From Escherichia coli O157:H7 (GTDB lineage Bacteria; Pseudomonadota; Gammaproteobacteria; Enterobacterales; Enterobacteriaceae), in assembly GCF_013167455.1 (NCBI RefSeq), contig NZ_CP038328.1: a stretch of 64,000 bases of DNA. One strand, 5' to 3'. Shown here piece by piece: positions 31,001-34,000 of this stretch. Position numbers: made by a program. The first letter of the stretch is position 1; every line of letters starts with the position of its first letter.

Positions 31001-34000
31001 AGCTGGCGAACGTGACAATTACTGATATGCAGGTACGCCAGCGTGATGTCGCTGCACTTGATGCCAGATACTCGAGGGAATTAGCCGATGCGAGAGCTGA
31101 AAATGAAACTCTGCGTGCTGATGTTGCCGCTGGTCGTAAGCGCCTGCGCATCAACGCCAACTGTCCAGGCTCCTTGCGTAAAGCCCCCATCACCTCCGGC
31201 GTGGATAATGCAACCGGTCCCCGACTGGCAGAAGCCGCTGAACGGGATTATTTCATCCTCAGAGAACGGCTGATGGCAATGCAGAAGCAACTGGAAGGAG
31301 CACAGGAATATATCCGTACCCAGTGTATACCGTGATGTTTTGTTATGAAGGTGTTACTGGTAACGTTAAGGTAATTTAACAAAGAGTCAGTTCCGGACTT
31401 TATAGTGTGCTCAGTTCATGGCCAAAAACGATTTCTGTGATAAATATTTTGAATATTATTTACAGATAAATGAAGTTGTTCGCATGGATGGAAATATTAC
31501 AATAGAGTATGAAGTATATGTCCGTATTGTATGGGCAGAGAAGGCAAAAACACGGTAATTCCTTGTGTTGCCATTATACCTGATTGGCAGAATAGTTGTT
31601 TGGTTTTGAGTATATAGTCAGCGTTTTTTGTTCAGTAATAGCTCTCTCAAAAAATAATAAAATAAGGTGATTATTTGGGTTTATTATTTGGTTTTTTTGT
31701 GTGTTGTTTTGTTGTTTTTCTGTGATTTATTTTTTATTGTTATTTCATTAAAGGAAGGTAAATTCAGGATAGCAGTCTGTAGATAATCGGAGGTCACTTA
31801 TGCTACATGATCACCTGGCAGAATGTCTGGAGAAAAAAGGACTGTACCGGAGAGCAGCTGAACGATGGGCAAAAGTGATGGTACAGCTAAGTGATGACCA
31901 GAAAAGAAAAGTGGCGGCACAGAAACGAGCAGAGTGTTTGCGTAAGGCGCGCCGGACTCCGGTTTCACCGATGAACCTGACAGAAATAAAACAAGCGGTC
32001 AACAGACTACATTCTGAGTTGGGAATGGGATTTGAAGAGCGGCGGGTATTCCGACGATATAAAGGGACAGGAGAACAGAATACGTCCGGAAACGCGCGGT
32101 CAAAAAAATGCTAAAAAATATCTGAGAGCGTTATTGCCTGTTACCATAAGAAAAAGCGACTTTAGTGGTCGCTTTTTGTGTCATATATAAGTCGTTTAAG
32201 TAAACCTGTCTGAACAGGTGCTCTGGTCGTGTTTGTCTTTGTTGGGTACAAATTGAGCATGTTTTTCATTAATTAATCTTCTTCTGCAGGCTTCAATAAC
32301 CCACGCTGAAAAATTACCTGAACCTTTCTGATCAAGAGCGATGTTAATTTGTTCAATCATTTGGTTAGGAAAGCGGATGTTGCGGGTTGTTGTTCTGCGG
32401 GTTCTGTTCTTCGTTGACATGAGGTTGCCCCGTATTCAGTGTCGCTGATTTGTATTGTCTGAAGTTGTTTTTACGTTAAGTTGATGCAGATCAATTAATA
32501 CGATACCTGCGTCATAATTAATTATTTGACGTGGTTTGATGGCGTAGATGCACGTTGTGACATGTAGATGATAATTATTATCATTTTGCGGGTCCTTTCC
32601 GGCGATCCGACAGGTTACGGGGCGGCGACCTCGCGGGTTTTCGCTATTTATGAAAATTTTCCGGGATCCATGTCCGGTTTCTCTTCAAGTTAACTATATG
32701 AAAAATATAAAAACAGGTCTTCTGTGAACCGGACATGAACAAAAAACAGACATGTAAACCGGACATGACCGGTTTTGTTGTGATTGTGAGGTGAGAGTTT
32801 TTGCGAGGTGAGGAGTGGCTACGCAGACTGAAGTTGCCAGGCATTTAAGTCTGACCGATCGCCAGCTTCGCAGATTGCAGAAATTGCCGGGTGCCCCGAT
32901 ATCGAATAAGCGAGGGCAACTGGATCTGGATGCCTGGCGCGATTTTTACATATCGTATCTGAGGAGAAGTAAAAACGATGTGCCTGATGGCGATAGCGAA
33001 GACGACTATGAGGAGAAATTGCTTATTGCCAGATGGGAACTGACAGCAGAACAGGCTGTTACACAGCAGTTAAAAAATGAGGTGTCAAAAGGAAAACTGA
33101 TTGACACCGGGTTCTGTATTTTTGCCCTCAGTAAGCTGGCAATGGCGTTATCCAGTACGCTTGATTCCATCCCTTTATCCATGCAGCGACAGTTTCCTGA
33201 TTTAACACCGCGCCATCTTGACCATCTGAAAACCCTTATTGCTAAGGGGGCAAATCAGTGTGCGCGGGCAGGGGATAAATTACCGGATTTACTTGATGAA
33301 TATATCAGAGCAACAACTGAATAATATGATGAGCGCTGTCACAACTGCATTACAGCCCCTGATAAGGGCATTGCCGGTGACGCCAGTTGAATGGGCTGAT
33401 CAAAATTATTATCTGCCTAAAGAATCTTCATATGGTGAGGGCGAATGGAAAACGCTGCCATTCCAGATCGCCATCATGAACAGTATGGGGAATGATCAGA
33501 TCCGCACTGTTAATCTGATTAAATCTGCCCGTGTTGGCTATACAAAGATGTTGCTGGGGGGGGGGGCGGGTATTTTATTGAGCATAAATCCCGAAACAGT
33601 CTGCTTTTTCAGCCCACGGATTCTGCCGCTGAAGATTTTATGAAGTCTCACGTGGAGGCGACGATTCGGAACGTGCCATGCCTGAAAGACCTTTCCCCAT
33701 GGCTGGGTCGTAAACATCGTGACAATACTCTCACGCTGAAACGCTTTTCATCGGGCGTCGGTTTCTGGTGCCTGGGCGGCGCTGCCGCCAAAAACTACCG
33801 TGAAAAATCCGTTGACGTGGTCTGCTATGACGAACTTTCCTCGTTCGAGCCGGATGTCGAAAAAGAGGGCTCGCCAACCCTGCTGGGGGATAAGCGTATT
33901 GAGGGGTCGGTGTGGCCAAAATCCATTCGCGGCTCGACGCCTAAAATCAAAGGCACCTGCCAGATCGAAAAAGCCGCTAACGAGTCGGCGCATTTTATGC

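Follow-up and report, generated by a model that had tools for sequence, protein, structure and literature searches.

Why does a regulator of virulence genes lie at the end of the lysis operon of a prophage in Escherichia coli O157:H7, and how is it expressed from there? We addressed this question in a 64,000-nt stretch of contig NZ_CP038328.1 (RefSeq assembly GCF_013167455.1), hereafter the window, in which a PerC-family gene, pchC, is found between the lysis gene Rz and the cos site of a lambdoid prophage, downstream of an AT-rich intergenic region. Our analyses indicate that pchC is very probably an accessory cassette of an Sp14-type prophage that has its own AT-rich promoter and leader and sequesters its Shine-Dalgarno (SD) sequence, with read-through from upstream as a second route of expression. 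Earlier publications already cover this gene, the family it belongs to, its target, and several layers of control, and the gene call, which is correct, represents no discovery. What we add is modest and concerns the anatomy of the cassette—i.e. a distal segment specific to group-1 pch genes, an ancestral hypervariable T-rich tract, and a predicted register of SD sequestration that is specific to the paralogue. This anatomy provides concrete constructs for asking why the 3 pch paralogues of this pathogen behave differently.

Identity of the gene and of its cassette

A first-pass annotation of the window, made from the sequence alone, had called a 104-aa PerC-like protein here, and this call holds with the sequence as given. 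In a profile search, residues 1–89 of the product align with positions 1–89 of the 90 in the Pfam model PF06069 (PerC; E = 2.5e-44), PHROG 994 is matched with E = 2e-45, and RefSeq annotates the product as a PerC family transcriptional regulator. The 865-nt cassette (31336–32200) is 100% identical to that of pchC in strain Sakai, with no differing position, and has the same position between Rz and cos and the same prophage layout. Many other O157:H7 chromosome records match this stretch at 100%, and the gene's annotation there is again that of a PerC family transcriptional regulator.

The Sakai loci used for comparison were pchA (ECs_1091, Sp4), pchB (ECs_2182, Sp11), and pchC (ECs_2737, Sp14). 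Group-1 pch genes are 315 bp long, nearly identical, and separated by diagnostic nucleotides at positions 16, 172, and 183 (PMC5931665). The window gene has this length and near-identity, differs from pchA/pchB in its coding sequence (CDS) at these 3 positions, and equals Sakai pchC at all of them. Cassettes of pchA and pchB are ~97% identical to the one studied here and differ, in addition to the diagnostic nucleotides, in a cluster at 31466–31490 and at many positions of a T/G-rich tract. Judged by its sequence, the feature is pchC, one of 3 near-identical group-1 perC homologues of E. coli O157:H7.

The first-pass annotation had proposed a similarity search as a check on family membership, and the end-to-end Pfam match is joined by 47% identity (residues 2–88) to PerC of enteropathogenic E. 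coli (EPEC), encoded on the EAF plasmid pMAR7 by a perC gene that follows perA and perB. The 2 proteins belong to the same Pfam family, with 47–48% identity over ~88 residues, and both PerC and Pch activate the LEE1 promoter in the enterocyte effacement locus (LEE) (PMC4332760). Unlike pchC, EPEC perC comes third in a plasmid operon that PerA controls and lacks an AT-rich region of its own, and its product is without the C-terminal ~15 residues of Pch.

The statement that Pch proteins activate the LEE agrees with the literature on group-1 Pch (PMC6265319, PMC5931665, PMC4764244). These proteins are needed for ler and the LEE to be fully expressed, and work through modification of the nucleoprotein complexes of H-NS/StpA (PMC4764244, PMC6265319). 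All 3 group-1 genes drive a ler::lacZ fusion; for example, cloned pchC yields 7,783 Miller units compared with 1,577 for the vector, a difference of ~5-fold (PMC5931665). According to the literature, PchA, PchB, and PchC bind to the LEE1 (ler) promoter and activate it by countering H-NS/StpA silencing, which switches on the type III secretion system (T3SS) along with effectors encoded by prophages.

The position of the gene between Rz and cos, also given in the first-pass annotation, is confirmed by an Rz gene ending at 31335 and an exact cos site downstream (Table 1). Rz is the last lysis gene and forms the left border of the cassette. Homology with the phages YYZ-2008 and lambda, both of which lack pch, ends right after the Rz stop codon and restarts at ~32280, a right border that falls inside the 3' end of a ylcI-family gene. 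This gene, located between pch and cos, was absent from the first-pass annotation. The slot so defined (~31336–32280) is the position of bor in lambda. Like bor and other morons, the pchC cassette occupies the non-essential space between Rz and cos at the end of the late operon, is compact, has its own terminator and a deviant composition, and encodes a function that serves the lysogen. Unlike pchC, bor is located on the opposite strand, encodes an outer-membrane lipoprotein, and shows no sequence similarity.

The terminator is shared by pchC and the convergent ylcI-family gene, and consists of the hairpin AAAAAGCGAC-loop-GUCGCUUUUU with U-runs on each strand (plus, z = -2.3; minus, z = -3.4). 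Insertion between conserved phage genes, absence from related phages, deviant composition, and a terminator of its own are thus all observed, while for a promoter of its own the pch upstream region contains weak consensus candidates alone. The pchC cassette is best described as a self-contained moron that closes the late/lysis operon of a lambdoid prophage of the Sp14 type. The assignment to Sp14 follows the layout of the window, with IS629 upstream of the holin gene, 2 small open reading frames (ORFs) before Rz, and tRNA-Ser/tRNA-Asn (serU/asnT) to the side. Sp14 carries the T3SS effector genes espJ and tccP, and by this layout the window gene resides in an effector-bearing lambdoid prophage, as is characteristic of group 1.

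Of 5,426 complete E. coli genomes, 672 carry the cassette (median, 3 copies). The same 687 records are retrieved whether the query is the upstream region by itself or the whole cassette—i.e. the upstream region and pch always occur together. Among 50,697 deposited phage records none holds the full cassette, the exception being a 3.2-kb fragment from an O157:H7 strain. More distant homologues are found on plasmid pDEC5B-4 of an O55:H7 strain (78% protein identity) and in E. albertii (90%), and these have only the proximal ~190 nt upstream of the gene in common with pchC, T-rich tract included. The distal ~300 nt are confined to the group-1 prophage cassette; they are absent upstream of the plasmid homologue, and a search of plasmid DNA with this segment returned no matches beyond the same cassette. 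A family member from E. albertii with 45% identity has a GC-rich context and is apparently coupled within an operon, and because of this context we regard the AT-rich tract as a trait of the Pch clade rather than of the whole family.

A separate arrangement was seen in E. coli 64A:C (L014, 700–890), upstream of a PerC homologue with 49% identity, where 3 direct copies of TGTTGGTTCA are followed by 3 of the complement, TGAACCAAC. This array resembles a set of operators or iteron-like sites and bears no relation to the pchC T/G tract.

The AT-rich region and the proposed routes of expression

The intergenic region from the Rz stop codon to the pch ATG (31336–31799) measures 464 bp (A133 C46 G101 T184) and has 31.7% GC compared with 50.2% for the window. 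Only 0.75% of all 464-nt windows are as GC-poor, and the rest of these are in the effector cargo region at 52.7–56 kb. The first-pass annotation had described ~400 bp of extremely AT-rich DNA upstream of the gene; the AT-richness is real, and "extremely" somewhat overstates it, as the minimum among 200-nt windows of this region is 28% GC. Elsewhere in the window, the sole stretches as GC-poor as the pch upstream region are 52700–54400 and 55800–56400 (down to 26.5% GC), which correspond to the espJ/tccP effector cargo end on the Sakai Sp14 map.

H-NS has a preference for DNA of AT-rich base composition. High AT content over several hundred base pairs is what we find here (68% AT over 464 bp), and, going by this composition, the upstream region would probably be dampened by H-NS. 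The suggestion of H-NS silencing in the first-pass annotation is thereby compatible with the data and plausible as far as base composition goes. The first-pass annotation had also considered this DNA to be curved, which a curvature prediction does not support. Using a wedge model, the predicted curvature of the region is only slightly above average (20.8 vs a window mean of 17.2 degrees per 31 bp), with one 99th-percentile peak at 31548, and the region is outside the 12 most curved loci of the window. The T-runs of the T/G tract are not phased.

We assessed variation in an alignment of 9 copies of the cassette, comprising the 3 Sakai paralogues as well as copies of O157, O111-type, and O145 origin and from a divergent monkey isolate. 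Two promoter-like sites are candidates for the start of pchC transcription (Table 1). Transcription from the upstream candidate would produce a leader of ~195 nt that includes the T/G tract, and from the proximal candidate a leader of ~50 nt. The second hexamer of the proximal candidate retains T-A-n-n-n-T (31735, 31736, and 31740) without change in pchC, pchB, the divergent A25 copy, and the plasmid homologue. We propose that the 464-bp region would act as pchC's own promoter and leader, and would place its expression in the lysogen under control of the host. For the paralogues, LrhA is a published activator of pchA and pchB (cited in PMC13012123), and NtrC and sigma-S signals act on pchA (PMC10714755).

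A further layer of control may act on translation. RNA folding from 5 different 5' ends produced the same local structure each time, in which AGGU (31791–94) pairs with ACCU (31813–16) and the AUG is held in a small hairpin. In pchA, an anti-SD sequence within the coding region blocks translation, and the small RNA DicF, together with Hfq, opens this structure at low oxygen (Melson and Kendall 2019, as reviewed in PMC7769764, PMC7873438, and PMC7308464). The SD, start codon, and early CDS of pchA are the same as those of pchC, and the predicted pchC hairpin likewise buries both the SD and the AUG. Translation of pchC could therefore be throttled by pairing of these elements with the first codons, as in pchA, in a different predicted register: because nt 16 is C in pchC and G in pchA, the predicted SD partner is ACCU at +14 to +17 in the former and UCU at +27 to +29 in the latter. 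The 5' end of DicF has 8–9-nt complements at 31845–53 and 31897–904, and a shorter one at 31818–22. An Rfam scan found no copy of dicF in the 64-kb window.

The second route of expression would be read-through from the late promoter upon prophage induction. In strain PA20, pchC was the only group-1 gene whose expression rose significantly after SOS induction, by ~8-fold (PMC5931665), and this specific rise fits a gene placed last in the late operon of an inducible prophage of the Sp14 type. The SOS/late-operon induction, the control by LrhA, and the SD-sequestering structure opened by DicF were all absent from the first-pass annotation. The same 8-fold rise also agrees with another scenario, in which pchC, lacking any meaningful promoter that belongs to it, is essentially a passenger of Q-antiterminated late transcription through the lysis genes on induction, particularly given that Rz immediately precedes it on the same strand and no convincing terminator separates the two. 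We consider this scenario unlikely, because pch homologues that are not part of any lysis operon (e.g. on plasmid pDEC5B-4) still have the homologous proximal upstream region, because pchA remains functional, with its upstream region in place, in an inverted segment of Sp4 that is uncoupled from the late promoter, and because lysogens express and regulate group-1 pch genes without induction (PMC4090186, PMC10714755).

Several points weigh against a cassette with its own promoter, translational control, and read-through. Neither promoter candidate is more than a weak consensus match, promoter-like sites are no more numerous than expected from shuffles, and we found no transcription start site data for pchC. 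Since pchA and pchB are stressed as the main contributors in lysogens (PMC13012123), the importance of a promoter belonging to pchC is uncertain. The papers and supplements that could be read, including PMC4764244, give no H-NS occupancy for the pch upstream regions, and the predicted curvature is ordinary. Stability of the SD hairpin does not exceed that of shuffled sequences (z = -0.9 to -1.5), the divergent A25 copy breaks 2 of its pairs without compensation, and no covariation supports it among the 9 copies; taken on its own, the computed case for this hairpin is weak. Lastly, late transcription heading for pchC would have to cross an IS629 copy, which is inserted after the late promoter region and before the lysis genes and could impede read-through.

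The T/G-rich tract and the distal segment

The T/G run quoted in the first-pass annotation is present at 31671–31720, inside a longer low-complexity tract (Table 1). The 80-mer starting at 31666 has the highest T+G content of the window (88.75%), and 31649–31719 is the window's sole C-free run of at least 60 nt. The mean pairwise difference among copies is 14.1% in the tract compared with 2.8% in the distal 305 nt and 1.7% at the start of the CDS. All 18 gap columns of the alignment are inside the tract, including T7/T8 length variation, and O157:H7 strain 7636 carries an 8-bp tandem duplication, TGTTGTTT. An exact-pattern scan of metagenome contigs for more variants of the tract had 0 matches.

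Could this tract be without function? It may represent mutation-prone simple sequence located between functional elements, shaped by slippage and AT-biased drift, with its odd composition a mere by-product. We see this as a genuine possibility, albeit one we lean against. The tract is 5 times more variable than its flanks and holds all insertions and deletions, the tandem duplication among them, its T-runs are unphased, the curvature predicted over it is ordinary, and its complementarity to the coding region is not kept among paralogues. Specifically, a candidate structure in which the U/G-rich tract pairs at long range with the A-rich beginning of the CDS was considered and rejected as not conserved (z = -4.6 in pchC, approximately -2.3 in pchA-type copies, and absent in pchB and A25). 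What a functionless tract does not readily explain is that T positions are far better kept than others (44 of 63 invariant, compared with 7 of 22 for G and 12 of 29 for A), and that a T-rich tract is found at the same place upstream of the homologues with 78–90% identity from the plasmid and E. albertii.

These features are consistent with the T-rich tract being an ancestral promoter-proximal or leader element that may be free to vary in purine content and length. One could go further and view the tract as an evolvable expression dial, in which selection holds a T backbone (UP-like or leader) while slippage and purine changes tune its length and content, although we judge this improbable. If true, each pch paralogue would gain, in its own prophage, its own expression level and regulatory response, and this could underlie the published differences between pchA, pchB, and pchC as well as the variation in LEE expression from strain to strain. 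Hypervariable and T-constrained, the tract counts as a minor detail and not as a discovery.

The distal segment differs from the tract in being free of insertions and deletions. Six substitutions within 25 nt (31466–31490) separate pchC-type from pchA/pchB-type copies, the rest of the segment being invariant between them, and this cluster looks like a short recombination patch.

Conservation of the distal segment equals that of the CDS, and one may ask whether it encodes a product of its own, either a 46-aa protein of family phrog_2157 or a small RNA acting with or on pch. The 46-aa ORF is open in 9 of 9 copies and matches its PHROG family from end to end. Still, we regard such a product as highly improbable. 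The ORF has no SD upstream, and changes between pchC-type and pchA-type copies are almost all non-synonymous (~8 vs 1 synonymous). By our estimate, ~1 open frame of this length is expected by chance in 6 frames at the same composition. The ORF has never been annotated in RefSeq and has no entry in the ribosome-profiling small-gene supplements for Sakai. For RNA, the pch region has no Rfam match with E up to 1 (28500–34000 searched), and a scan of the whole window at gathering thresholds likewise found none there. All copies of the cassette are also very recent relatives, so that their conservation carries little weight. The ORF is most likely a chance frame and not a functional gene. An origin as a remnant of perB or of another gene was considered as well and rejected, as tblastn against plasmids returned the same cassette only and no NCBIfam model matched.

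Other features of the prophage

Table 1. Features in and around the pchC cassette, with positions numbered from the first nucleotide of the window.
Feature	Position	Strand	Basis and remarks
Rz spanin gene	30868–31335	+	ORF list; RefSeq "lysis protein"; Sakai ECs_2738/2739
Rz1 lipoprotein ORF, embedded in Rz	31088–31273	+	ORF list
Distal intergenic part, AT-rich	31336–31640	+	9-copy alignment and co-occurrence in 687 records; near-invariant among copies, only with group-1 pch
46-aa ORF (MAKNDFCDKYF...), unannotated	31418–31558	+	phrog_2157 end to end, E = 1.4e-35
Promoter-like site TTGCCA-17-AATAGT, upstream candidate	31568–31596	+	Consensus scan, 9/12 matches; kept in 9/9 copies
T/G-rich low-complexity tract (core 31666–31745)	31641–31760	+	Hypervariable part of the cassette
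Promoter-like site TTGTTT-17-TATTGT, proximal candidate	31712–31740	+	Read from the sequence by eye
Predicted translation-initiation hairpin	31776–31833	+	SD GGAGGT (31789–31794) and AUG paired with first ~35 nt of the CDS
pchC CDS	31800–32114	+	104-aa PerC-family activator of ler/LEE1; Pfam PerC match; 100% identity to Sakai ECs_2737
Bidirectional intrinsic terminator of pchC and the ylcI-family gene	32151–32177	both	Hairpin with U-runs on both strands
YlcI/YnfO (DUF3950) family gene, 74 aa, convergent to pchC	32196–32420	-	NCBIfam NF041551; RefSeq
cos site	32620–32664	+	Exact 45-nt match to lambda cos, none expected by chance
Small terminase gene, downstream of cos	32815–33324		RefSeq terminase small subunit annotation

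The IS629/IS1203 element occupies 27600–28920 on the minus strand, between a late-region DUF6645 gene and the holin gene, as in Sakai Sp14. It includes a match to the IS629/IS1203 programmed-frameshift ALIL pseudoknot at 28522–28638 (Rfam, 121.5 bits).

Downstream of cos, the large terminase gene (33296–35226) is identical to ECs_2735 of Sakai Sp14 except for a run of G11 (near 33556–33566) in place of G9, which splits the frame into ORFs at 33239–33643 and 33640–35226. The longer run reflects either an error in sequencing a homopolymer or a genuine loss of DNA packaging. In strain 86-24, several head genes of the same prophage also carry a frameshift flag in RefSeq.

In lambdoid phages, the late promoter and its early terminator are located downstream of Q. 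Just downstream of the Q/tRNA cluster of this prophage, Rfam identifies a match to STnc100 at 25465–25637 on the plus strand (100.8 bits), and a weak second match, below the gathering score, occurs in the early-left region at 14660–14878 on the minus strand (29.5 bits). The prophage also contains a sok antitoxin RNA of a hok/sok-type module at 21355–21529 on the plus strand (Rfam, 114.9 bits).
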